In this document: positions 49,853 through 61,903 of the stretch, piece by piece
How positions within the stretch are numbered: position 1 is the stretch's first letter
Layout of the letters: the number at the start of each line of letters is the position of its first letter
DNA from: Planctomycetota bacterium
Lineage (GTDB): Bacteria > Planctomycetota > B15-G4 > SIAN01
DNA length: 64,000 nt
Direction of reading: 5' to 3'
NCBI GenBank assembly: GCA_031409275.1
Contig: JANNXA010000010.1
Span: 196,040 to 260,039, forward strand
The notes under the pieces: model-generated
Databases searched by the model: none
Told to the model about the DNA's origin: nothing
The model's input: only the letters and a program-made list of their open reading frames with translations
Translations under genes and position numbers: made by a program

Positions 49853-52390
49853 TCAGTTTCCCTCCAAGCTCGAGTGATGACCAACCCGTGCGAGGAAGTC
49901 GGCAGGGTCGAGCAAGAACATGTCGGAATGCTCCGAAGTGTGGCACGCCGCGCACCGTTCAAGCCCGGGCTCGCCCACGATGGCATCCTGATCACCACCC
50001 TTGGCGACGTGTTGGCCTCCCGGACCATGACACACCTCGCAACCCACGTCGCGCAGCGCCGGATCCGGGCGCTCGAACTCGTAGCCGCTCGGCTGATCAA
50101 AGCCGACGACGTGGCATGCGACGCAGTTGCGCACCCCCTGCCGCTGCGCGCGCTCCAGAGTCTTCCATGCCGTGGCGTGCGGAGAGGCCGACCAGTCCGC
50201 GTGCTCGGCGGCATGGCAGGTCACGCACTTCGCGCTACCGACATACGCATTGCCGGCGACCGCCCGCGGTTCGACGAAGCGAAGCTCAACCGGTCCGTCG
50301 TCCTGCTCGAGGACCTTCCGAGCTCGCTCGCGGAAACGCGCCCGCGCCGGCGCGTCGTGCGCCGAGCCGCGCAGGTCGACCTCGGCGACGGACACTCGAA
50401 TCCCAGGTCGCCATTCGACCCGCTTGACGAAGTAGGCTCCGAGCGGCGCGAAGGCGATCGGCTGCCCGCCAACCGCACCGTCGACCTGATCGCGGACGAT
50501 GCGATCTTCTGCGATGCGAGGGAGCAGTCCGTCACTCGAACAGAACAGCACCGGCCGCCCGGCAGCGGCTGCGATTCGCGCGGCTTCGGCGGGATCGATC
50601 GCCCCGGCGACGATCAGGGCAGCATCCAAGGGAGCGGCAGCGATCTGCGCAACCACGGCGTCGACCGGATCCCGGATCTCGAACATCGCGTCGATCAGCT
50701 CCGCAGTCGCGCGACCGGCATGACGAGCCCTCTCTCGCGTAACGCCAATGATGCGGCAGCGGCCGGCGTTGCCAACGACTTCGGTGAATGGGCGCAGTTG
50801 CATACGCCCGACTCGCACGACGACGTTGCACGCGACGAATTGCGCGACGGCGATGTCCGAGCCTGCGAGATCGCCCGCCGCGAGCGACTCGAGCTCTCGC
50901 ACTCCAGGTACCCAAGCCGCCACCGCGAGCTCGGTAGCGGACTGAAGCAGCAGCTCGTTCGCCTCGCGTCGGTAACCGGAACGAGTCGGCACACCGAGCA
51001 CCTCTCCCAGCAACAACCGGATCTCATCCGCCGCGGGCGGCACCGCCCACCGCGTGTAGAGATCGATGAATCCGCCGCCCTGGGACGCCTTGCAACCGCA
51101 GCTTTCCAGGTAACCGCCGTGATCGTTGGCGAGCTCGACCGTCCACGTCGGTGCGATCGGCGACGCCGCATCCGACCGCGCGTCCCCTGCCACCTGGGGC
51201 GCAGGGACGACCGTCGAACGCATGCGAATCGCGTCGATCGCCGCCGCAACGCTCGCTGCCGGGTCCGCCCAAAGCCGGACATCGTTCGCGGCTGCGCGGT
51301 CAGCCACCCATCGCGACACCTCACGTGCGACGGCTTCGGGGTCCCACTGGATCTCCGCCGCGAGCGACGCACGCAACCGTGCGAGCACGTGCGGCGCCAG
51401 GAGTTCAATCACCCGTTCCTGCTCGATGACCCCCGTCACTTCCTGACAAGCGAGGAACGCCTCCAGGTCCCCGACTCTCGCCAGTCGATGGCGCATCCGC
51501 TCCTCCGCGAGCGGACCGGCGAACACCATGGCCCCGCCGAATAGCGCGTGCTGCAGCAAATCGGCGGCGGCGGCAGTGCAGGCCAGCGTCGCAGGTGCGC
51601 TCGCCGACGCCCCTCCTGCGACCAATCGGTCGAGGACCGCCCGTGCGGCCAGCGAGAAACCGACCGTCGACGAAGCATCTGCGAAAGGTCCGATGAGGAG
51701 GTTGGAGAAGACGTGCGGCGCGGCCTCCTCATCACCGAACTGCCCGCGTCGCCGTACAACCCAGTAATCCGGCGCCTTGTCCCCGTCGCCGCCGACGAGG
51801 TCGCGATCAACCGCGGCAAGGCGATCGAGCCTCGCGACCACCTGCGACGCCAGATCGACGTCGTCATGCTCCGGCGCGACCACCCAGGCGGAATGGTTGG
51901 CCGTACCGATGATCGACCAAGCGGGGCCCGCGAAGGCGACCGTCCTCCCATCGAACGCGAGCGGCAGATCTCGCGTGGCAACTGAGTCACTAGCCTGCGC
52001 AAACGCGACGGTTCGTCGATCAAGCGCCGTCGGCACCATGCGAGCGTCGAGGGTGAATCCGCGCCCGCAGCGACGCGCCCCCAACGACTCCGCCAGCTTC
52101 CGTGGGATCACGGTCTGCTGACCATCGAAGAGAGTTGCCGCCCCGCTCGGCAGGAGCTCGGCGTGCCGGCTTCGCGCGACTTGCTCGAGTCCTCGCGGCA
52201 AGGCGAACGGAGCCGTCCCACCAGCCTCGAACTTTGCCGTGAGGACCAGCATGTCGTCGACGACTTCGTACGAGCATCTCGCCGGCAACAACGGCTCACG
52301 ATTGCGCCAAGCCGCCACGGGCGCACACGCCATCCCGACGAGTGCCGCCACTCGCGCGAGTCGTGGAATGTCACGTTTCGATCTGCCCAC
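49853..52390 (-). CDS. Exported multidomain protein: unknown N-terminus, UshA/5'-nucleotidase-like domain, tetraheme cytochrome c554-like domain
   Basis: NDHGGYLESCGCKASQGGG; YVGSAKCVTCH, CVACH, CEVCHGPGGQH, CAACH (four CxxCH); GTG start after GGAG. Confidence 0.8.
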   Translation of the reverse strand: MGRSKRDIPRLARVAALVGMACAPVAAWRNREPLLPARCSYEVVDDMLVLTAKFEAGGTAPFALPRGLEQVARSRHAELLPSGAATLFDGQQTVIPRKLAESLGARRCGRGFTLDARMVPTALDRRTVAFAQASDSVATRDLPLAFDGRTVAFAGPAWSIIGTANHSAWVVAPEHDDVDLASQVVARLDRLAAVDRDLVGGDGDKAPDYWVVRRRGQFGDEEAAPHVFSNLLIGPFADASSTVGFSLAARAVLDRLVAGGASASAPATLACTAAAADLLQHALFGGAMVFAGPLAEERMRHRLARVGDLEAFLACQEVTGVIEQERVIELLAPHVLARLRASLAAEIQWDPEAVAREVSRWVADRAAANDVRLWADPAASVAAAIDAIRMRSTVVPAPQVAGDARSDAASPIAPTWTVELANDHGGYLESCGCKASQGGGFIDLYTRWAVPPAADEIRLLLGEVLGVPTRSGYRREANELLLQSATELAVAAWVPGVRELESLAAGDLAGSDIAVAQFVACNVVVRVGRMQLRPFTEVVGNAGRCRIIGVTRERARHAGRATAELIDAMFEIRDPVDAVVAQIAAAPLDAALIVAGAIDPAEAARIAAAAGRPVLFCSSDGLLPRIAEDRIVRDQVDGAVGGQPIAFAPLGAYFVKRVEWRPGIRVSVAEVDLRGSAHDAPARARFRERARKVLEQDDGPVELRFVEPRAVAGNAYVGSAKCVTCHAAEHADWSASPHATAWKTLERAQRQGVRNCVACHVVGFDQPSGYEFERPDPALRDVGCEVCHGPGGQHVAKGGDQDAIVGEPGLERCAACHTSEHSDMFLLDPADFLARVGHHSSLEGN

Positions 52391-52449
52391 GGAGGACTCC
52401 AATCGCACCGGCTTCGACTGTCACGACCGGCTCAATGACGCATCTCAAA

Positions 52450-52502: not shown

Positions 52503-52799
52503 TCACGAATCGAAGCAACCGACCTGCTTGATCTTGTCGGGACGAATCGTCGGGTGGCCATTGGCATCCCAGCAGTTCTGTGCGCACTGCTGCTGCTCGA
52601 CCAAGATGCAGATACCGTTGCCCATGTTGCATTCCCAACCGCGCGTAAGCGGACCGGAGCACATCGAGAGCGCAACCTTCGGTGAGGCAGTCGTGTGGTC
52701 GTATGGGAACGTCGGCGAGTACTGAGCAACCGAGATCCCCACCAGACTCAGCACTGCAAGCCCGACTGCGGCCACGGATCGGACATGTCGCCTCGTCAT
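52503..52799 (-). CDS. Small secreted six-cysteine peptide (98 aa precursor)
   Basis: GAGGAG RBS 7 nt upstream; signal peptide MTRRHVRSVAAVGLAVLSLVGISVA; mature region QYSPTF...GCFDS with six Cys; composition unlike the Arg/Ala-rich shadow ORFs. Confidence 0.8.
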   Translation of the reverse strand: MTRRHVRSVAAVGLAVLSLVGISVAQYSPTFPYDHTTASPKVALSMCSGPLTRGWECNMGNGICILVEQQQCAQNCWDANGHPTIRPDKIKQVGCFDS

Positions 52800-52986
52800 C
52801 TTCGATCTCCTCGATGCGGCGTCGGCGTCAGAGCCCGATGCCGCAGGAACACGACTCGCGATGCGACCCGACTCCGGGCGCTTCGCGAGACCGCGTCATC
52901 AGTGTTCGCCGACCTGCATGTCTGTCTTGCGCAAGTTGTGACGAACCGGTCCGCCCGCGCGCTACCATCCGCCCGCGCCCCCACCG

Positions 52987-53607
52987 ATGAACGCCTCCAA
53001 CTCCCACACCGACGACGCTTCACGCGAGCCGACCGCGTTCGACGAGCTCGAACTCGTGCGTCGCGCCGTCGCTGGCGATCCGACGGCTCGCGCCGCGCTC
53101 GCGCCCTACTTCGCGAAGGTGCCGCGCATCGTGGCGGCGCTCTGCCGGCAAAGCGGCACGCGCGTCGCGCCGCAGGACCAGGACGACGTGGTGCAGGACT
53201 GCCTCGCGCTCCTCTGGCGCAAGCTCCCCGACTTCGCGGGTCGCGCGCGCCTCACCACCTGGCTCTTCCGCGTCGTCTCGCTCGAGCTCAAGAACGCGTT
53301 GCGCCGTGTCGCCAAGCGGAAAAGAAGCGCCGCCCCCGCGGACGCTCACGAGCGGGAAGAACCCTCCAGCAGCGCCGACGATCCGAGCGGCCGTCTCGGC
53401 ACCCTCGCCGCCGAGGAGCTACTCGCCAGGCTCGAGCCGACACCAATGGAGGTGGTGCGGAGGCGCCACTGGGAGGAGCAGACGTTCGAGGAGATCGCGG
53501 CAGAGCTCGGACTCAAGGTGAGCCAGGCGAAGAGCCTCTACTACCGGGCGCTGCAGCGACTGCACGGCTTCCTGACCGAGCCGGGCGCGGGGGGTACTCG
53601 CGGATGA
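52987..53607 (+). CDS. ECF sigma-70 factor
   Basis: ELVRRAVAGD, DQDDVVQD, FAGRARLTTWLFRV, region 4 TFEEIAAELG...KSLYYRAL. Confidence 0.92.
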   Translation: MNASNSHTDDASREPTAFDELELVRRAVAGDPTARAALAPYFAKVPRIVAALCRQSGTRVAPQDQDDVVQDCLALLWRKLPDFAGRARLTTWLFRVVSLELKNALRRVAKRKRSAAPADAHEREEPSSSADDPSGRLGTLAAEELLARLEPTPMEVVRRRHWEEQTFEEIAAELGLKVSQAKSLYYRALQRLHGFLTEPGAGGTRG

Positions 53608-54299
53608 ACGATCGATCGATGGCGGGCGGAATGGACGAGAACGAGAAGCGCACGAACGACGCCGACGAGCTGATGGCGGCGGTGGTCGCCGGCGACATCG
53701 TGCGCAACGATCCGCGCGTCGAAGCGCTGCCGGCAAAGCAGCGCGCCCAACTCGACGCGCTGCTGCGCACTCAGGCGCGGCTCGACGAGGCGGCCGAGGA
53801 CGAGCAGGCGTTGCTGGCCGAGATCGAGCGCGGCGACGTCGCGCCGACCGCCGCGACGCCCGGCCCGCGCCGACTCGCCTCGACGTTCTGGCTGCGCGCC
53901 GCGGGCATCGCCGCGATGGCGGCGGGCCTGCTGCTGCTGGCCCAGACGCTGCGCACGACCGATCCGGTCACGCCGATCGGCAGCGGTCAGCTCGGAAGCG
54001 AAGTCGCCATCGAACTGCTCGCGCCGCGCGGCGCCGTCGACGCCTTCGCGCCGTTCCGATGGCAAATGGCCGACGCGCCGCCGCTCTCGCGCTTCGTGCT
54101 GCTGATCTGGGATGGCGGCGGTGCGGCGCCCGAAGCAGGTGGCCGTCCGCTGATCGAACGCGACGTCGATGGGACGCAATGGACGCCCGCCGCCGGCGAT
54201 CCGCCGCTGCCCGATCGCATCGCGTGGCGCGTCGATCTCCGGCCGCTCGATGGAGCGCGCCAGCGCGGGCCGGTGGAGAGCGCTTGGCGGGATCGCTGA
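53604..54299 (+). CDS. Putative single-pass anti-sigma factor with extracytoplasmic beta-sandwich domain
   Basis: ATGA overlap with the sigma gene; helical N-terminus, TM FWLRAAGIAAMAAGLLLLA, then LLAPRG...FRWQ...FVLLIWD...WRVDL. Confidence 0.7.
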   Translation: MNDRSMAGGMDENEKRTNDADELMAAVVAGDIVRNDPRVEALPAKQRAQLDALLRTQARLDEAAEDEQALLAEIERGDVAPTAATPGPRRLASTFWLRAAGIAAMAAGLLLLAQTLRTTDPVTPIGSGQLGSEVAIELLAPRGAVDAFAPFRWQMADAPPLSRFVLLIWDGGGAAPEAGGRPLIERDVDGTQWTPAAGDPPLPDRIAWRVDLRPLDGARQRGPVESAWRDR

Positions 54300-56794
54300 G
54301 AGCAGCGCCACTCCGTTCGCTCCTCCTCGCGGCAGCGACCGCGACGGGTGGTGGAATGGTGTATTCGCGGGAAACGGCGCAAGCGGAGCCGCAACTCCAG
54401 CAACAGGGCGCGCCGCAGGAGCTGCTCGACGAGTGCCGGCTGCGGCTCGCCGATCCGCTGGCGAAGACGGTCGACTTCGAGCAGCTCGCCTATCGGCTGG
54501 TGAACGATCTCCTGTACGACGAGAACTTCCTGGCACAGGTCGATCTGCCGGCGTTGCTCGACCAGCTGAAGCGCGAAGGGCGGGCCGTCGCGCGGCGTGC
54601 GGGCGGCGCCTACCCGCTCACCTTCGACTACGAACTGGCCAATGCCGCGCTGCTGGCGGGCCACGCGACTCTCGCCGGCGAGCTGCTCACCGAAGCACTC
54701 CCGCAATGGCCCGACGACGTCGGACTCCTGGCGCTGGCCGCCGAGCAGGCGATGGCGACGGGCCACTGGAATCTCGCGCGCCAGCACCTCGAACGCGGCC
54801 GCACGATCACGGCGGCGCAGGAGGCCCCCGGCAGCATCGACCGAGTGATGAGCGCGACACTCAAACTCGAACAGATCCTCTTCGACGTCCGCCTCGGCCG
54901 CGCCGACCGCGCGCTGCTGGAGCTGGACGCGCTGCTGAAACGCGGCGGCGAGCCGGCCGAGATCAGGCGCGCCGCCCAAGCGCGAAAGATCGATCTCCTC
55001 CTGCTGGTCGATCGCGCTGACGACGCGCTGGCCGCCATCGACGCGGTGCCACAAGAGGAGTTCAGCGCCGACCTCGCCGCCACTCGCGTCATCGCCCAGT
55101 CGGCCGTGGCGAACCGTGACGACGTCGACGCGACCTTGCTGCTCGACCAGCTCGAAGCGCTCCCTCACCAGCAAGGCATCAGCAAGACGCCGGTGCTGAT
55201 CGCAAGGCTCGCCGCGGCGGAGCTGGCGCTGCGAATCGGGCAGCCCGATCGGGCGCGCGCGGCGATCGACGCCATGGCCACCGAGCTGCCGCGCCAGGCG
55301 GCCGCGAACGGCCTCTTCCTGCGCGAGCGCGCATGGGCGCGGGCGATCGAGGGACGACTCGGACGCCCGGACGCGACGTCGACCGAGCGCCCCGGCGCAA
55401 CCGCCTTCGCGATGCTGCTCGACGAGTGGCGCATGACGCCGCTGCTGCCTGGCGGCATCTCCTTCCTGCGCAGCGGCGCGCGCCGCCTGGTGATCCACGC
55501 GGCGTTGGCGGCCGCCGGCGACGACCTCGCCGCGTTCGAGCTGCTGCTCGCCGCGCAGACGATGGGGTCGCTCGCGCGGCAGCTCGAACTGCCGGCGCCG
55601 ACGTTGCCCGAACTGCGCCGTGAGCTGCTCGCTGCCGGCGAAGTGCTGCTGACCTGGTTGCCGACGACCGACGCGACCCACCTCTTCCTGGTCGACGCGA
55701 CGCGCGTGCGCCACTTCACGCTCCCTTCCGAACGGGAGACGCGCGACGTCGCCAACGCGCTGGCGTCGGCGCGCGGCGTCGAGGCGCGCCGCCCTCACCT
55801 CGCGGCGCTGGCCGCCGCGCTGCTGCCCGATGAGGTTCGCGTCGCACTGGCCGGCGCACGCCATGCGTGGCTCTGCGGCAGCGAGCTGCTGGAGGGCGTG
55901 CCGCTGCTCGAACTGGAGGTGGCGCCTGGCGTGCGGCTGGGCGCGCAGCTGCCGATCGCGGAACTCCCCTCGTTGCCGGTCGCACTCTGGCTGCGGCGCC
56001 GTCCGCGCGCGACTCGCGAGGCGGGCATCGATGCGTGGGTCGGACCCGAGACGAGCCTCAACGGAAAGGCGCGCTTCACCTTCGATCGCGAGAAGTTCGC
56101 GGAGACGGTGCCGACCCTCCGCTACGTCGAAGGCGACGGCAGCGCTGCCGGCGAACGCTCCTCGTTCGGCCAGGAGCTCGGCCGCCGGCTGGCGCATGAC
56201 GTCGGCCTGTTCGTGGCGCATGGCGTCATCGATCGCCACCGCGACCGTTTCGCTGGGCTGCTGCTCCTGGGCGGCGACGACCCCGAGCGCACCGTGGCGT
56301 GGGCCGACGCATTCGAGCGCGCGACGCTGCCTCCCTTCCTGGTGATGGCCGCGTGCTCGGCCGGCGAGGCGCCCAATCGCATCGGCGAGGATGGTGGCGA
56401 GCATCTCGGCGGCGCGGCGCTGATCGGCGGCGCGCGCTGCGTCGTGCTGGGCCGCGGGATGCTCAGCGCGGGCGAGACGTTGCCCGAGCTGGTCACGCTG
56501 CTGCGCGGCGTCACCGCGGGCGAACCGCCGGCAACCGCGCTGTGGCAAGCGCGCCGCGAGCGGCCAGCAGACCAGCCCTTCGTCGGCCTGGCGGTGATCG
56601 GGCTCGGCGACGAGCCGTTGCGCGAACGCAGCGGCGACGACGAGTGCCCGGCGCTCTTTCCCAACGCGATCGCAGGCGCGGCACATCGCGGCATCGGCGG
56701 CTCATCCATCGCGAGGGTCGGCGCGGCGCTCTTGCTGCTCGGCGGCGGGTGGCTGCTGCTGGCGAGCGGCCGGCGGCGAGCGGCGCAGCGCTGA
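54284..56794 (+). CDS. TPR-like and CHAT (caspase-like) domain protein with signal-like N-terminus and C-terminal TM anchor
   Basis: TTG start after GGAGAG (inferred). CHAT motifs LEGVPLLEL, FVAHGV (His), VMAACSAG (Cys), GARCVVLG, PATALWQAR. C-terminus VGAALLLLGGGWLLLASGRRR. Confidence 0.82.
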   Translation: MAGSLRAAPLRSLLLAAATATGGGMVYSRETAQAEPQLQQQGAPQELLDECRLRLADPLAKTVDFEQLAYRLVNDLLYDENFLAQVDLPALLDQLKREGRAVARRAGGAYPLTFDYELANAALLAGHATLAGELLTEALPQWPDDVGLLALAAEQAMATGHWNLARQHLERGRTITAAQEAPGSIDRVMSATLKLEQILFDVRLGRADRALLELDALLKRGGEPAEIRRAAQARKIDLLLLVDRADDALAAIDAVPQEEFSADLAATRVIAQSAVANRDDVDATLLLDQLEALPHQQGISKTPVLIARLAAAELALRIGQPDRARAAIDAMATELPRQAAANGLFLRERAWARAIEGRLGRPDATSTERPGATAFAMLLDEWRMTPLLPGGISFLRSGARRLVIHAALAAAGDDLAAFELLLAAQTMGSLARQLELPAPTLPELRRELLAAGEVLLTWLPTTDATHLFLVDATRVRHFTLPSERETRDVANALASARGVEARRPHLAALAAALLPDEVRVALAGARHAWLCGSELLEGVPLLELEVAPGVRLGAQLPIAELPSLPVALWLRRRPRATREAGIDAWVGPETSLNGKARFTFDREKFAETVPTLRYVEGDGSAAGERSSFGQELGRRLAHDVGLFVAHGVIDRHRDRFAGLLLLGGDDPERTVAWADAFERATLPPFLVMAACSAGEAPNRIGEDGGEHLGGAALIGGARCVVLGRGMLSAGETLPELVTLLRGVTAGEPPATALWQARRERPADQPFVGLAVIGLGDEPLRERSGDDECPALFPNAIAGAAHRGIGGSSIARVGAALLLLGGGWLLLASGRRRAAQR

Positions 56795-56903: not shown

Positions 56904-58631
56904 CTACTGGCACTGACCCGGCGCCGGCGGCCCGTACGGAACCGACGGCGGCGTCGAGGGAGCAGTGGGCGGCGGCATGCGACGAATGCGAATGAAGCCG
57001 GCGATGCGGGTGGTCGTGCCGCACTTCGGCACCGCCTGGTAGACCGTCCAACTCGGATGGTTCTCGCCATCAGCGAGAAGAGCCTGGATGTTCTCCTCCG
57101 ACTTGTCGAAGGCGCCGATGATCGCCGGCGACGAGTCCGTCACCGCTCCGCTCTCCACCTTCACCAAGCGCGTCTGGATCACGTACATCGCGCTGGTCGG
57201 CGATGCGTAGAACTTGATCTCGACGTCGTCCGGCTCATTCGGCTCGGGTACCAGCACTTCAGCGATCAACTTGCGGCAGTAGCTGACCGGCGTCGTCGTG
57301 TAGGTCCCGTAGGTCCCGTTGTTCGCGTCGACGAAGGCGAGTCGATACACCAAAGACTCGACGAACCAGGTCGGGTCGGACGCGAGCGCGCCCGCGCTGC
57401 CCAGTCGGGCGATGACGTGCGCACGTTGCGTCGTGGGGTTGATGATCTCGCTGCATGTCTCGTCCGGAGTGAAGTCGTTCACCACCGTCAGCGCCTGCGG
57501 CACTGCCGGCGTGTCGACCAGGGCGAGCTCCTGCGTGCTGGCGAGCGGCACGACGAAGTCGTCGTAGCGATCGCCGCCGAGATCGCCGACGCACGGGCGC
57601 ACCGCCGGGGTCGCGCCCGAACCGCCAAGATCGAACGCGATCTGGGTGCCGTACTGGAAGGGCGCCCCGCCGGAGGTCTGCTGCGGGAAGAGCCACAAGG
57701 CGCTTTCGCCGCCGCGCATCACCGCGAGGTCCGTCGACGTGTCGTCATTGAAGCGGCCGGCCGCCATCGCGCCGAAGGCGTCGCTGGTCGTGAAGCAGAG
57801 CGCGGCACCGCCGAGGTCGATGACGAAGAGGTAGCGCGTCGCATCGCCGGGAGTCGCGGTCGCTGCCGTGAACCACGCCACGCGGTCGTTGGTCTCGGAG
57901 GCCTCGTTGCGGCGAACCAGGGCCATCGAGTCGAGGTCGGGGCGCACCGACGAGGAGGTCGACAGCACCGTGCCGCCGGCCGAGAGGATGCGCAACGCCG
58001 CCTGGTCGTTGATCACCAGTTCCGGCTCAACCGAGTTGGCGTTGAACTCGCCCGCCGCGAGGTTCTTCACGTCGCTGGCCGCGGTCCACTCGAAGCGCCG
58101 CGTGTTGGCCCAGGTCCCGTTCGACTGCTGGATCTTGGCGTCAGTGCTGCGGCCGTTGGCCAGCAGCACGAGGAGGTCGTCATCGCCATCGTTGTCGAGG
58201 TCGGCGACCACGACACGCTTGGCGTTCTGCCACGCCGACGTCGTGTCGACCGCGGTGAAGAGCGGTCCGGTGGCCGTCTCTTTCATGGTCCACAGGCCGT
58301 CGGAAGCCGCCAGCACCAGCAGGTCGCGATCTCCGGCGACTGCCTGGCCGTCGACCGTGAGCGTCGCCACATCGTTGACGTTCCCGGTCGTGGCGATCAC
58401 CGATCCGCCGCCGGAGACGGCCGCTGCATCGAACTGGACCAGATGGTTCGCGCTGACGACGACCACGTCGGTCCGGTGATCCCCGCTCAGCTTGGCCATG
58501 GTGGCACCACTGAAGGGCCCGGACCCAGGGTTGCCCGAGGGCCAAGGAAGCAGTTCGACCACCTGTCCGAGCGCCGGCGGCGCCAAGCCCGCCACAGCGC
58601 AAAGACCCAAGAAGCTGAAGGGACGTCGCAT
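56904..58631 (-). CDS. Secreted FG-GAP/VCBS-repeat beta-propeller protein with C-terminal extra domain
   Basis: Signal MRRPFSFLGLCAVAGLAPPALG; repeats VADLDNDGDDDLLV, AGRFNDDTSTDLAV, VGDLGGDRYDDFVV. Confidence 0.8.
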   Translation of the reverse strand: MRRPFSFLGLCAVAGLAPPALGQVVELLPWPSGNPGSGPFSGATMAKLSGDHRTDVVVVSANHLVQFDAAAVSGGGSVIATTGNVNDVATLTVDGQAVAGDRDLLVLAASDGLWTMKETATGPLFTAVDTTSAWQNAKRVVVADLDNDGDDDLLVLLANGRSTDAKIQQSNGTWANTRRFEWTAASDVKNLAAGEFNANSVEPELVINDQAALRILSAGGTVLSTSSSVRPDLDSMALVRRNEASETNDRVAWFTAATATPGDATRYLFVIDLGGAALCFTTSDAFGAMAAGRFNDDTSTDLAVMRGGESALWLFPQQTSGGAPFQYGTQIAFDLGGSGATPAVRPCVGDLGGDRYDDFVVPLASTQELALVDTPAVPQALTVVNDFTPDETCSEIINPTTQRAHVIARLGSAGALASDPTWFVESLVYRLAFVDANNGTYGTYTTTPVSYCRKLIAEVLVPEPNEPDDVEIKFYASPTSAMYVIQTRLVKVESGAVTDSSPAIIGAFDKSEENIQALLADGENHPSWTVYQAVPKCGTTTRIAGFIRIRRMPPPTAPSTPPSVPYGPPAPGQCQ

Positions 58632-58826
58632 CAGTCGACTCCGAAGTTGATGGCGAACAGCCAGATCAGGGAAGCCCCGCAGGTGCATTTGTGTTCGACC
58701 GCGGTCACTTCGTCAAGCCGCTCGGTGAAAAGGCGGGCAACGAACTCCCGATCGTGACAACCGCCTGCTCGGCGGCCCAGACGCGCGCCCGGGCCGATCA
58801 AGCCGCCGCGCCGCCGCGCCGCTCCT

Positions 58827-59744
58827 TCAAAGCGCTCCGCCGATCAGCTCGGCGAAGTCATCCGGCAACGGCGCTTCGAGCTCGACGCGGGCGCGCGTCT
58901 GCGGATGGGCGAAGGAGAGCTTCCAGGCGTGCAGGGCGGGGCGCCCGAACTTGAGCCGGCTGTCGCGGCCGCGGGCGTACTTGCGCTCGCCGATCAGGGA
59001 GTGGCCGATGGCGACGAAGTGGAGGCGGATCTGGTTGTGGCGACCCGTTTCGAGCTCGATCTCGATCAGGCTCGCGCGGCCGCCGGAATCGAGCGGGCGC
59101 ACCACTTTGTAGTGGGTGATCGACGGCGCCCCGCGCACGCGCACTTCCGCCTTCTTGCCGAGGTCGACGATCGGCCGCTGGATCGTGCCTTGCGCCGGCC
59201 GCGGCGTGCCGTTCACCGCGGCGAGGTAGATCTTGCGGACGGTCCGCGCACGGAACTGCTCCTCGAGCGCCGCCCGCGTCGGCTCGTCGAGCGCGAAGCA
59301 GAGCGCGCCGCTGACATCGCGATCGAGGCGATGGACCGCAAGCGCGGTCGGATGGGAGACGCGCAGCTCGGAGAGGCAGGTCTTGCCGCGATCGCCTTCC
59401 GATGGAACGCTCGAAAGGCCGGCCGGCTTCGCGATGACGACGACGCTGCCTTCCGCATAGAGGATCGGCAGGCGCGTCGACTTGGTGCCGCTTGGGATCC
59501 CGGGCACGCGCGCGTTGGCGGCGGCCGGCACGATGTCGACCGGCACGTCTTCGAGCGTCGCGACCGGCTCGGGCGGCCGCTTCTTCGGCGACGGCCGCTT
59601 GAAGCCGCGCGCACGCTCGGGGCTTGGCGGGGCCGACGGACTCGACGGCGCGGAGGACGGCGCGGAGGGAACGGGACCAGGTTTCGAGGGCGCCGAGGCG
59701 CCGTCTGCCGGCGGCTCCCACCACGGACGACGCGGACCACTCAT
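58827..59744 (-). CDS. RluA-family pseudouridine synthase
   Basis: KPAGL, VHRLDRDVSG, LETGRHNQIRLH, ALHAWKLSFAHP. Confidence 0.92.
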   Translation of the reverse strand: MSGPRRPWWEPPADGASAPSKPGPVPSAPSSAPSSPSAPPSPERARGFKRPSPKKRPPEPVATLEDVPVDIVPAAANARVPGIPSGTKSTRLPILYAEGSVVVIAKPAGLSSVPSEGDRGKTCLSELRVSHPTALAVHRLDRDVSGALCFALDEPTRAALEEQFRARTVRKIYLAAVNGTPRPAQGTIQRPIVDLGKKAEVRVRGAPSITHYKVVRPLDSGGRASLIEIELETGRHNQIRLHFVAIGHSLIGERKYARGRDSRLKFGRPALHAWKLSFAHPQTRARVELEAPLPDDFAELIGGAL

Positions 59745-61903
59745 GCAGCGCTTCCTTCCCGCAGACGTCGCTCGAGCAAGCTCATGCGCCGTTCCACCTG
59801 CCCCATCTCGATGGCGGTCTGCAACGCTCGTTGCGACCCCACCACCACCAGCACGCGCTTGGCACGCGTGATCGCGGTGTAGAGCAGGTTACGGCGCAGC
59901 AGGACGAAGTGCTGCATCGCGAGTCCGAGCACGACGACTTCGAACTCGCAGCCTTGCGATTTGTGGACCGTGATCGCCCACGACGGCTGCAGCGAACCGA
60001 CGCTCTTGCCCGGGAAACGGACCACGCGGTCGTCGAAGTCGACGGTCAGGTCGCCGCTCTTCGAATCGCGCGCCGTGACCTGCCCGATCTCGCCGTTCAT
60101 CACGTCGAGGTCGTAGTCGTTGCGCGTCTGGATCACGCGATCGCCCGGCCCGAGCAGCGCGCCGCCGGCAGGATTGTGCACCGCCCGCAGCTGCTCGTTC
60201 AGCGGGCCGACCCCCATCGGACCGCGATTCATCGGCGAAAGGACCTGCACCGCGCGCCGCGGATCGAGGCAAAGCTTCTTCGGCAGGCGCGTGGCCGCCA
60301 GCTCGACGATCGTCTTCTGCGCCGCGCCCGGATCGTCGCGCACCACGAAGAAGGCGCCGTCGTCGCCGTCGCGCGCGAACTCCGGCAGCTCGCCGCGGCG
60401 CACCGCGTGGGCGGCTCGCACGATCGAGGAGCCCTCGCGCTGCCGCAGGATCCGCTCCAGCCGCGCCACCGGCACGCGGCCGCACTCGACCAGGCTGCGC
60501 AGCACATCGCCCGGCCCGACGCTCGGCAGCTGATCGGCGTCGCCCACCAGCAGGAGCCGCGCGCCGGCCGGCAGCGCGCGCAGCAGATCGCGCAGCAACA
60601 GCAGGTCGATCATCGACGCCTCGTCGACGATCAGCACGTCGACCTCGAGCGGCTGCTCGCGGTTGCGATCGAAACGGTGGCGATGCGGGTTGAACTGCAA
60701 CAGGCGGTGCAGCGTCTGTGCCGGTCGACCGCTCGCCTCCGACAGGCGGCGCGCGGCGCGGCCGGTCGGCGCGGCCAGCGCGACCCGCAGCCCCTTGCGC
60801 TCGAAGATGGTCACCAGCGCGCGCACGATCGTCGTCTTGCCGACGCCAGGACCGCCCGTCAGCACCCCGGTCCGCTCGTTGAACAGCAGCGTGAGCGCCG
60901 CCGCCTGATCGTCGGTGAGGGAAATCGAGAGCTGCGGTCCGGCCCACGCCAGCGCGCGCGCCGCATCGATCGACTGCCGAGCGTCGACTGGGCCCAGCCG
61001 GCGCTGCACGACGGTGGCCACCTCGATCTCGGCAGCGCGCAATCGCGGCAGGAAGAGCGCGCTGTCGCCCTCCAGCGGATCGTGCGCGAGCGTCCCCTGC
61101 TCGAGCAGCACGGCCACGCGATCCTCGATCGGCCCGGTCGGCAACGAGAGGAGCGCCTGCGCGTGGCGCACCAGCGTCGTGCGCGGCAGGTAGCAGTGGC
61201 CTTCATCGGCCGCCTCCTGCAGTACATGCACCGCTCCGGCCTCGATGCGAGCGTCCGCATCGGGCGGCACGTGGAGGCGCGTCGCGATCTCATCCGCGCG
61301 GCGAAACCCGATGCCGTCGACCACCTGCGCCAGCTGCCACGGATTGGCGCGCACGCGCTGCGCGACGTCATCCCCCAGGGCGACGCGCACCTTTTCTGCG
61401 GTTGCGGCGCCAAGCCCCAGTCCCGCCAGGAACGCCTTCTGCTCGTTCTGAGCGCGTGAACGCTGCCATGCGGCGGCGACGGCGGCGATGCGCTTCTTGC
61501 CGAGGCCAGCCACTTCGCTCAGTCGCGCCGGCGCCTCCTCGAGGATGCGCAGCGTGTCGAGCCCGAACGTGTCGACGATGCGCCCCGCCAGCACCGGCCC
61601 GATCCCTTCCACCGAACCCCCGGAAAGGAAACGTCGCAGCCCGAGGTCGGTCGACGGCGGCACCCAGCGCAACGCCACGATGCGGAGCTGCCGCCCCCAC
61701 TTCGCATGTTCGAACGGGACTCCGGTGAGTCGCACCGTATCGCCGATGGCGCAGCCCGCGAGGTCGCCCGCCACCACGTGCCGCTTGCCATCGCGCGCCA
61801 GCAGTTCGGCGACGACGTAACTGCGTTCGCTGCTGGCGTAGATCTCCCGCTCGAGCAGCCCCTCGAGTTCGACCGCAGATTCAGGAGCCGCGTCGCCAGC
61901 CAT
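59741..61903 (-). CDS. recD2: ATP-dependent RecD-like helicase RecD2
   Basis: HhH motifs (GIGPVLA, GIGFRRAD), Walker A GGPGVGKTT, LAAPTGRAA, VDEASM, GDADQLPSVG, AITVHKSQGCE, LLYTAITRAK. Confidence 0.95.
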   Translation of the reverse strand: MAGDAAPESAVELEGLLEREIYASSERSYVVAELLARDGKRHVVAGDLAGCAIGDTVRLTGVPFEHAKWGRQLRIVALRWVPPSTDLGLRRFLSGGSVEGIGPVLAGRIVDTFGLDTLRILEEAPARLSEVAGLGKKRIAAVAAAWQRSRAQNEQKAFLAGLGLGAATAEKVRVALGDDVAQRVRANPWQLAQVVDGIGFRRADEIATRLHVPPDADARIEAGAVHVLQEAADEGHCYLPRTTLVRHAQALLSLPTGPIEDRVAVLLEQGTLAHDPLEGDSALFLPRLRAAEIEVATVVQRRLGPVDARQSIDAARALAWAGPQLSISLTDDQAAALTLLFNERTGVLTGGPGVGKTTIVRALVTIFERKGLRVALAAPTGRAARRLSEASGRPAQTLHRLLQFNPHRHRFDRNREQPLEVDVLIVDEASMIDLLLLRDLLRALPAGARLLLVGDADQLPSVGPGDVLRSLVECGRVPVARLERILRQREGSSIVRAAHAVRRGELPEFARDGDDGAFFVVRDDPGAAQKTIVELAATRLPKKLCLDPRRAVQVLSPMNRGPMGVGPLNEQLRAVHNPAGGALLGPGDRVIQTRNDYDLDVMNGEIGQVTARDSKSGDLTVDFDDRVVRFPGKSVGSLQPSWAITVHKSQGCEFEVVVLGLAMQHFVLLRRNLLYTAITRAKRVLVVVGSQRALQTAIEMGQVERRMSLLERRLREGSAA

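Follow-up and report, generated by a model that had tools for sequence, protein, structure and literature searches.

A 64,000-nt window of DNA from a Planctomycetota bacterium (contig JANNXA010000010.1, positions 196,040 to 260,039; "the window" means this whole stretch) carries three tandem genes that encode a sigma factor of the extracytoplasmic function (ECF) type, a single-pass membrane protein and a large protein with caspase-like features, with a convergent gene for a secreted FG-GAP repeat protein behind them. We give about an even chance to the proposal that this operon combines an ECF sigma factor and its probable anti-sigma factor with an extracytoplasmic TPR-CHAT protein that is likely to be the site-1 protease acting on the anti-sigma factor. 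Gene layout, codon positions and overlaps were read on the forward-strand numbering of the window. Local G+C content is about 70%, and long spurious open reading frames (ORFs) are therefore plentiful in this region. The principal features of the locus are as follows.

52935..52970, forward strand: promoter-like conserved block, GTTGTGACGAAC ... TACCAT, kept in the locus of the closest orthologue (genome G004)
52987..53607, forward strand: ECF sigma factor, 206 aa (Pfam and NCBIfam matches)
53604..54299, forward strand: probable anti-sigma factor, 231 aa (ATGA overlap, transmembrane segment, 45-member family alignment)
53883..53951, forward strand: transmembrane (TM) segment of the middle protein, aa 94-116 (hydropathy)
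53991..53996, forward strand: Leu130-Gly131 of the middle protein's linker, which also holds Pro121 (family alignment)
54284..56794, forward strand: TPR-CHAT caspase-like protease, 836 aa from TTG 54284 (homologues, structure, dyad)
within 54284..56794, forward strand: signal-like N-terminus of the CHAT protein, aa 1-35, and TPR/helical scaffold, about aa 43-450 (sequence, AlphaFold2 model)
56219..56221, forward strand: codon of CHAT His646, in FVAHG (sequence)
56354..56356, forward strand: codon of CHAT Cys691, in MAACS (sequence)
56702..56770, forward strand: C-terminal TM helix of the CHAT protein, aa 807-829, followed by RRR (sequence)
56904..58631, reverse strand: secreted FG-GAP repeat protein, convergent, fourth member of the module (Pfam FG-GAP_3, E = 3.3e-10)
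58750..58761, reverse strand: GTTGTCACGATC block upstream of the FG-GAP gene, resembling the block upstream of the sigma gene (a lead only)

The sigma and middle genes overlap by 4 nt and the middle and CHAT genes by 16 nt. The ATG of the middle gene shares the sequence ATGA with the stop codon of the sigma gene, and the TTG at 54284 of the CHAT gene lies inside the 3′-end of the middle gene in a different frame. By its domain matches, the first gene of the operon encodes an ECF sigma factor (sigma-70 group 4). Pfam recognises Sigma70_r2 (E = 1.1e-8), r4_2 (6.7e-10) and Sigma70_ECF (7e-5), all above their cut-offs, and NCBIfam TIGR02937 matches at 6.8e-16 with 58.3 bits against a cut-off of 42.9, in keeping with the label given by an earlier first-pass annotation of the same letters; the protein falls below the cut-off of every specific subfamily. 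Upstream of this gene, the block at 52935..52970 is retained at the G004 locus and the neighbouring intergenic DNA has diverged. The block is promoter-like and a candidate for either a housekeeping-type or an ECF-type promoter; a simple sigma-70 scan returned nothing at these positions, and a terminator scan was likewise uninformative.

A single hydrophobic segment, at about residues 94-116, divides the middle protein into a helical N-terminal domain and, past the linker, an outer domain of about 100 residues. The 45 middle genes taken from related modules belong to a single family, and the one TM segment, which had been read together with an outer domain in the first-pass annotation, is present in all 45. 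The linker that follows the membrane is well conserved among the 45 sequences: Pro121 is kept in 44, position 130 is Leu in 40, Met in 2 and Ile in 1, position 131 is Gly in 37, and a Leu/Met/Ile-Gly motif lies 8-23 residues past the TM segment in 39. The outer domain is marked by Pro141, Gly143, Val145 and conserved F-W and W-P motifs. The protein is probably an anti-sigma factor, because of its position, translational coupling, topology and weak similarities to known anti-sigma domains. In a PDB profile search with the family, three of the best six matches were anti-sigma domains, none of them significant and all aligned over the CxxC helix (RslA 3hug_B, E = 0.052; RsiW, E = 1; the N-terminal domain of DdvA, 8rlz_A, E = 1.4). 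An H...CxxC motif precedes the TM segment in 16 of the 45 family members, and 17 of 30 ESM Atlas look-alikes belong to clusters in which 15-48% of members carry zf-HC2. Folding of the single sequence was poor, with a predicted local distance difference test (pLDDT) of 52.9. A word-index search with the anti-sigma profile returned nine proteins, none informatively named (one "hypothetical protein", the rest unnamed); longer proteins yielded no fused relative of the middle protein, though as evidence this is weak.

The CHAT protein and its side of the membrane

The frame ending at 56794 has two possible starts, TTG 54284 (836 aa) or ATG 54356 (812 aa). When scanned directly against Pfam and NCBIfam, the protein had no match at E ≤ 0.01, and only a TPR match at 0.11 when E-values up to 10 were admitted. 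A phmmer search of 1.84 billion representatives returned 912 relatives at E ≤ 1e-3, 617 at ≤ 1e-10 and 34 at ≤ 1e-30, and the CHAT model PF12770 was above its cut-off in 26 of 26 relatives sampled across that list (E from 1.1e-8 to 1.2e-39), several of which also matched TPR models. Membership in the CHAT family is therefore transitive, since the direct scan is empty and the relatives carry PF12770. The CHAT label of the first-pass annotation thus stands through the homologues, the predicted structure and the dyad and not through a direct Pfam or NCBIfam match. His646 and Cys691, which had been noticed in the motifs FVAHG and MAACS, do not vary in any of the 143 aligned relatives, a constancy shared by only two other columns, Gly701 and Gly773. 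The spacing of 45 residues from His646 to Cys691 equals that of H862 and C907 in DdvA, an anti-sigma factor of Myxococcus xanthus, as given in the sections of PMC11506125 drawn on here.

An AlphaFold2 model built from an 82-row alignment (pLDDT 89.0, predicted template modelling score 0.86) comprises a helical repeat scaffold at about residues 43-450, an alpha/beta domain at about 453-773, a disordered stretch at 793-806 and a terminal helix at 807-835. Foldseek placed DdvA first among structural matches to this model (8rw5, E = 4.4e-12; 8rot_A, 1.3e-11), followed by Csx29/craspase and separases, over a range of 4e-12 to 1e-8. VIA alignment, with Z-scores of 18.6-26.6, gave the highest values to Csx29 chains (7xc7_D, Z 26.6, root-mean-square deviation (rmsd) 11.4 over 488 aligned residues; 7xss_C, Z 26.5, rmsd 3.7, 358 aligned), then separase 5u1s_A (Z 23.7, rmsd 4.8, 578 aligned) and DdvA 8rot_A (Z 18.9, rmsd 5.1, 559 aligned). 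The modelled fold is the TPR-CHAT architecture of separase, craspase and DdvA, and which member is nearest, DdvA or Csx29, depends on the aligner. A PDB sequence search with the window protein gave nothing useful, and a PDB profile search with 27 CHAT relatives retrieved TPR proteins only, not DdvA or Csx29. Taken together, the transitive homology, the dyad and the modelled structure identify the large protein as a member of the CHAT family with a catalytic-type His-Cys dyad.

Both ends of the protein bear on its location. In G004, the closest orthologue with 63% identity, TTG 54284 corresponds to a GTG that follows the same GGTGGAGA, and 54356 has no ATG counterpart. Its N-terminus, with two arginines, a hydrophobic run and a VSA-QE junction, is a clear signal peptide; the signal-like N-terminus that the first-pass annotation saw if TTG 54284 is used is thus kept, along with the start, in this orthologue. 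A hydrophobic N-terminal stretch is also present in the G002 and G006 orthologues and in a second copy in the window's own genome, and many more distant CHAT homologues have textbook signal peptides. The C-terminus reads ...VGAALLLLGGGWLLLASGRRRAAQR, and the hydrophobic helix followed by RRR, also seen at first pass, has counterparts among the relatives. By a crude hydropathy measure applied to the 143 relatives, 67 have a hydrophobic N-terminal stretch, 69 end in a helix with two or more Lys or Arg residues behind it, and 34 have both; miscalled start codons are frequent in protein collections of this sort. Among 56 CHAT genes taken from genomic frames, a C-terminal anchor is present in at least 31 at a strict threshold, with about six more just below it. 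When the last 59 residues were compared with sorting-signal models, a C-terminal sortase signal was matched only below threshold (E = 0.044; 13.9 bits, where the cut-off is 27), and PEP-CTERM and GlyGly-CTERM models had no match. We accordingly take the tail to be a membrane anchor and nothing more.

By the positive-inside rule, most of a protein lies outside when its C-terminal helix is followed by a basic cluster. Export of the CHAT protein and an extracytoplasmic location are likely, and this placement is favoured because of the conserved start and signal, the helix with its basic cluster, and the predicted contact with the outer domain of the anti-sigma factor described below.

Recurrence of the module and the FG-GAP partner

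When 41 related genomes were searched in six frames, CHAT matches turned up in 15, including the window's own genome with two; the highest counts were 23 in G006, 8 in G018 and 6 in G026. The titles of those few relatives that have names point to Planctomycetota and Phycisphaerales. Fifty-four loci were fetched and scored with purpose-built family hidden Markov models, giving 56 CHAT genes when the window is included. The sigma and middle genes lie upstream on the same strand in 49 of the 51 CHAT genes that have at least 1800 nt of upstream DNA, and the ATGA overlap of the middle gene with the sigma stop codon is found in most loci. The order of three overlapping, co-oriented genes reported at first pass is hence one that recurs. 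Five loci stand outside the 51: four are cut by contig ends, and the fifth (L069) has about 1,350 nt upstream, in which both genes are still seen. At L034, anti-sigma-like and FG-GAP genes are present and there is no sigma gene within 4.3 kb upstream; at L019, there is no adjacent anti-sigma-like gene and the nearest sigma-like frame is about 2 kb off.

A fourth gene, absent from the three-gene module of the first-pass annotation, belongs to most of these loci. Downstream DNA of 1500 nt or more was available for 55 CHAT genes. A gene of the FG-GAP family comes next in convergent orientation at 46 of them and on the same strand at two, and seven have no such gene; the two same-strand cases, L053 and L066, are both in G006. 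Pfam FG-GAP_3 matches 30 of the 32 downstream neighbours examined. In the window, the FG-GAP ORF opens at 58688 on the reverse strand, and the ATG at 58631-58629 is preferred as its likely start because it yields the signal peptide MRRPFSFLGLCAVAGLAPPALGQ.

In the 40 complete modules, distance matrices of the four genes correlate with r of 0.56-0.75, and none of 999 permutations reaches the observed values; the correlation of the FG-GAP gene with the CHAT gene is 0.75. These distances show that duplication and divergence affect all four genes together, and since the genes are neighbours the correlation alone is no sign of physical interaction. Two complete four-gene modules stand in tandem about 8 kb apart at locus L046 (G021:C7:212219-229447), and the 23 CHAT matches of G006 are scattered over many contigs. 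The window's genome has a second complete module of its own, with sigma, anti-sigma-like, CHAT and convergent FG-GAP genes (L047, G000:C50:3135-12727).

A candidate site-1 protease, the alternatives and the gene neighbourhood

Structure prediction of a complex was carried out with residues 42-792 of the CHAT protein and residues 117-231 of the anti-sigma factor, each with its own alignment, along with three controls. The complex scored 0.68 (runs of 0.68, 0.68 and 0.62) against 0.01 for the best control; of 157 solved complexes 116 score this high or higher, as do 2 of 215 mismatched pairs, a comparison that is only rough here given the custom alignments. At least 63% of contacts are common to the runs, and the partner has a pLDDT of 77 or more. 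In the model, the beta domain of the anti-sigma factor (156-222) docks on TPR residues 207-244 and 490-501, and linker residues 123-135 run along CHAT residues 644-651 and 689-692, the two strands that bear the dyad, with residue 646 paired with residue 130. The contacts predicted for the docked domain include 207-215, 238-244 and 494-498 on the CHAT side and 159-161 and 215-219 on the anti-sigma side. The model supports binding of the outer part of the anti-sigma factor by the CHAT protein, and the conserved Leu130-Gly131 is predicted to sit in a substrate-like manner at the catalytic centre. The trans-envelope site-1 protease that the first-pass annotation had suggested is supported in part: the predicted extracytoplasmic location of the CHAT protein, its invariant dyad, the conserved neighbourhood and the linker placed at the dyad speak for it, and the middle protein, its presumed substrate, matches no anti-sigma family model.

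From this arrangement we infer a pathway of regulated proteolysis. An N-terminal signal peptide would direct the CHAT protein out of the cytoplasm, and its C-terminal helix would anchor it in the inner membrane and leave the RRR cluster inside. Its TPR scaffold would hold the outer domain of the anti-sigma factor, so placing the juxtamembrane linker with Leu130-Gly131 at His646/Cys691. A signal that is sensed by the TPR part, or brought by the FG-GAP protein, may then activate the dyad, and the CHAT protein would make the site-1 cut in the linker near Leu130-Gly131. The remaining stub would be a substrate for an RseP-type M50 site-2 protease, and the genome encodes such an M50 protease (G000:C22, 121.5 and 96 bits). 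The freed sigma factor would be expected to transcribe its own operon and further targets, possibly including the FG-GAP gene. The FG-GAP protein itself could be a ligand, a co-sensor, a substrate or an output. A fuller version, which we put forward tentatively and as possible rather than probable, is that of a four-gene "receptor caspase" cassette in which a secreted FG-GAP propeller would gate an anchored periplasmic protease that cuts the Leu-Gly linker and frees the sigma factor, with more than 20 orthogonal copies in some Phycisphaerae genomes.

Several points weigh against the CHAT protein as an extracytoplasmic site-1 protease. The complex score is the model's own confidence, and an enzyme-substrate pose can be an artefact; the score may also partly reflect the solved structure of DdvA, whose linker faces the dyad. 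The Pfam CHAT model does not recognise the window's own protein. The middle protein has no Pfam or NCBIfam match, an anti-sigma family is recognised by Pfam in 0 of its 45 relatives, and the window copy has neither Cys nor His in residues 1-94. The h-region of the window's CHAT protein is weak (maximum Kyte-Doolittle value of 1.49 over 11 residues), ATG 54356 is the start in the public gene call (P0001, 812 aa), which removes the signal-like N-terminus, and about 19 of the 56 CHAT genes end right after the CHAT domain with no anchor. Two loci depart from the paired arrangement, L034 (G018:C100) with the middle gene only and L019 (G018:C79) with neither gene adjacent. In DdvA, too, the site-1 role of the CHAT domain is still a hypothesis, which its authors regard as not validated until the signal is found (PMC11506125, in the sections drawn on here).

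The alternative that survives best, though we consider it rather unlikely, is that the CHAT protein serves as a sensor or co-receptor on the anti-sigma factor and has its substrate elsewhere, such as the FG-GAP protein or envelope proteins, while a different protease or a change of conformation would switch off the anti-sigma factor. Cleavage is not needed for the beta domain to dock on the TPR scaffold, and the FG-GAP gene, which is a convergent neighbour at 46 of the 55 loci and has diverged in step with the CHAT gene, would suit such a partner. The same could be said of a mutation of the DdvA dyad, which is described in PMC11506125, in the parts considered, as having no effect in unstimulated cells. 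The model, however, sets not only the domain but also the conserved Leu-Gly linker against His646/Cys691, and the dyad is invariant in all 143 relatives, both of which count against this alternative.

It is improbable, in our estimate, that the CHAT and FG-GAP genes are mere outputs of an autoregulated sigma/anti-sigma operon with no role in sigma control. Many ECF operons do include their own target genes, and the upstream blocks give this idea some substance. The sequence TGACGAAC-N-TACCAT is found solely upstream of the sigma gene, and the degenerate 12-mer GTTGTSACGAWC has just two sites in the 5.59-Mb assembly, upstream of the sigma and FG-GAP genes, both of them retained in G004, where it must be added that the motif was defined from the very two sites it marks. 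When upstream regions were compared across 28 modules, however, the best match within modules averaged no excess over that between modules (11.64 against 11.75 of 14), and a promoter shared by the sigma and FG-GAP genes is a lead that we do not claim. The one-to-one pairing of the sigma/middle pair with the CHAT gene has survived many duplications (up to 23 matches per genome, with the pair kept in 49 of 51), the outer domain and linker of the anti-sigma factor are conserved, and a specific interface with that domain is predicted, all of which speaks against such a passive role.

Least probable is a CHAT protein that starts at ATG 54356, stays tail-anchored in the cytoplasm and cuts the cytoplasmic part of the anti-sigma factor as Csx29 cuts Csx30. 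For it, the public gene call uses that start, Csx29/craspase chains have the top VIA Z-scores and Csx30 binds an ECF-like sigma factor (PMC10028731, in the parts considered). Against it, the orthologue keeps the earlier start and signal peptide and has no ATG where the later start would be, clear signal peptides occur in many homologues, the basic cluster past the C-terminal helix is what an N-out protein would be expected to have, the interface is predicted to lie on the extracytoplasmic part of the anti-sigma factor, and no defence or CRISPR (clustered regularly interspaced short palindromic repeats) family was found among the 11 ORFs scanned within about 10 kb.

The module and eight neighbouring ORFs were searched with PADLOC, and the only family found was that of a RecD-like helicase; Pfam identified the FG-GAP protein, a cytochrome and a pseudouridine synthase among the neighbours of the module. 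The description of the system as CRISPR-independent in the first-pass annotation accords with this search. Divergent from the sigma gene and beside it is an ORF of 98 aa (52503-52799, reverse strand) with a signal peptide, six cysteines and a local dip in G+C to 0.65, which has no Pfam or PADLOC match; at the corresponding position upstream of the sigma gene, the G004 locus has different DNA (judged by eye on 260 printed nt). Further on, an 851-aa protein (49853-52408, reverse strand) has 130 C-terminal residues that match cytochrome c554-type multihaem motifs (Pfam, 1.1e-15) and also the tail of the "UshA-like (seleno)protein" model NF041198 (E = 1.8e-34, far below the cut-off of that model); its large N-terminal part is without a family. 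Upstream of the FG-GAP gene and on the same strand are genes for a pseudouridine synthase (58827-59744, reverse strand; PF00849, 6.9e-28) and, with a 4-nt overlap, the RecD-like helicase (59741-61903, reverse strand; PADLOC typeIV_RecD, 1.2e-70), both probably housekeeping.

Comparison with known systems

The first-pass annotation took the CRISPR-associated Csx29/Csx30 pair as the precedent for this locus. In type III-E craspase, the TPR-CHAT protease Csx29 cuts a flexible loop of Csx30, which holds the ECF-like CASP-sigma (PMC10028731, in the parts considered). That system and the one in the window have in common the class of protease, with the top VIA Z-score of 26.6, and a sigma factor as the output. 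In contrast, the Csx29 system works in the cytoplasm, is switched on by RNA through Cas7-11 and is tied to CRISPR, and Csx30 is not a membrane protein, whereas the middle protein of the window lies in the membrane and no CRISPR or defence match surrounds the locus. A closer precedent is DdvA-DdvS, in which a periplasmic TPR-CHAT domain has already been proposed as the site-1 protease, so the site-1 idea, CRISPR-independent as it may be here, is not a new principle.

A genomic link between ECF sigma factors and TPR-CHAT proteins that does not depend on CRISPR has also been recorded for ECF54 of Actinobacteria. According to the supplement of PMC7826278, as far as it was consulted, the neighbours of that sigma factor encode CHAT/TPR, subtilase and carboxypeptidase-regulatory-like proteins, with no anti-sigma factor. 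The window differs from ECF54 in phylum and in neighbours; its sigma and CHAT genes flank a gene for an anti-sigma-like membrane protein, and its fourth gene encodes an FG-GAP protein.

The order of cleavage envisaged here is the familiar one. In the RseA/DegS/RseP pathway, an extracytoplasmic site-1 cut is followed by an M50 site-2 cut that frees the ECF sigma factor. The site-1 enzyme of the window would differ from DegS in being an operon-encoded, clan-CD caspase-like cysteine protease and not a PDZ serine protease.

Planctomycetota are known for having many ECF sigma factors of unknown control. The presence of up to 23 copies in one related genome suggests a large and unannotated signalling family in this phylum; if the proposal is true, the family would be a major route of trans-envelope signalling in Planctomycetota that has so far gone undescribed. 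The CHAT domain is missing from the public annotation, and the start chosen in the public gene call cuts off the likely signal peptide. No published description of a split sigma/anti-sigma/CHAT module was found in literature text searches.

The most instructive comparison is with DdvA of M. xanthus. In a single chain, DdvA joins a zinc anti-sigma domain, a TM helix, a flexible linker and a periplasmic TPR-CHAT part, and the protein without TPR-CHAT is a substrate of RseP and is degraded; its authors propose signal-induced autoproteolysis in trans within a dimer, followed by RseP (PMC11506125, in the sections drawn on here). According to the same sections, fused TPR-CHAT anti-sigma factors are reported only in Myxococcota and one Comamonas, and the main text of the paper has no occurrence of Planctomycet, FG-GAP or standalone. 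DdvA-DdvS (PDB 8rot, 8rw5, 8rlz) and the window are alike in an ECF sigma gene that adjoins a gene for a single-pass anti-sigma factor (probable in the window), in a TPR-CHAT part of the separase/craspase type on the periplasmic side (predicted in the window) with a 45-residue dyad spacing, in a juxtamembrane linker at the dyad (again predicted in the window), and in the availability of an RseP-type site-2 protease. Sequence profiles do not link the CHAT parts of the two systems, but DdvA is still the top structural match by Foldseek.

The differences lie in how the parts are distributed. The window has a separate anti-sigma factor (231 aa, with a small outer domain of its own) and a separate TPR-CHAT protein (836 aa, with a signal-like N-terminus and an anchor), so cleavage would occur in trans between two gene products and not within a homodimer. 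The N-terminal domain of the window's anti-sigma factor is without zinc ligands, unlike the CHCC zinc domain of DdvA. The module adds a convergent FG-GAP gene, has no CRISPR genes or genes of a cyclic-oligonucleotide-based antiphage signalling system (CBASS) nearby, and belongs to Planctomycetota, where a genome can hold up to 23 matches. By analogy, what appears to be new here is the split, four-gene, multi-copy form of a DdvA-type, CHAT-controlled ECF switch. Separation of the enzyme from its presumed substrate, along with a candidate site at Leu130-Gly131, makes the CHAT site-1 hypothesis testable; if the proposal is true, this would be the first case in which that hypothesis can be tested with enzyme and substrate apart, and the window system would stand as the two-chain counterpart of the DdvA autoproteolysis model.

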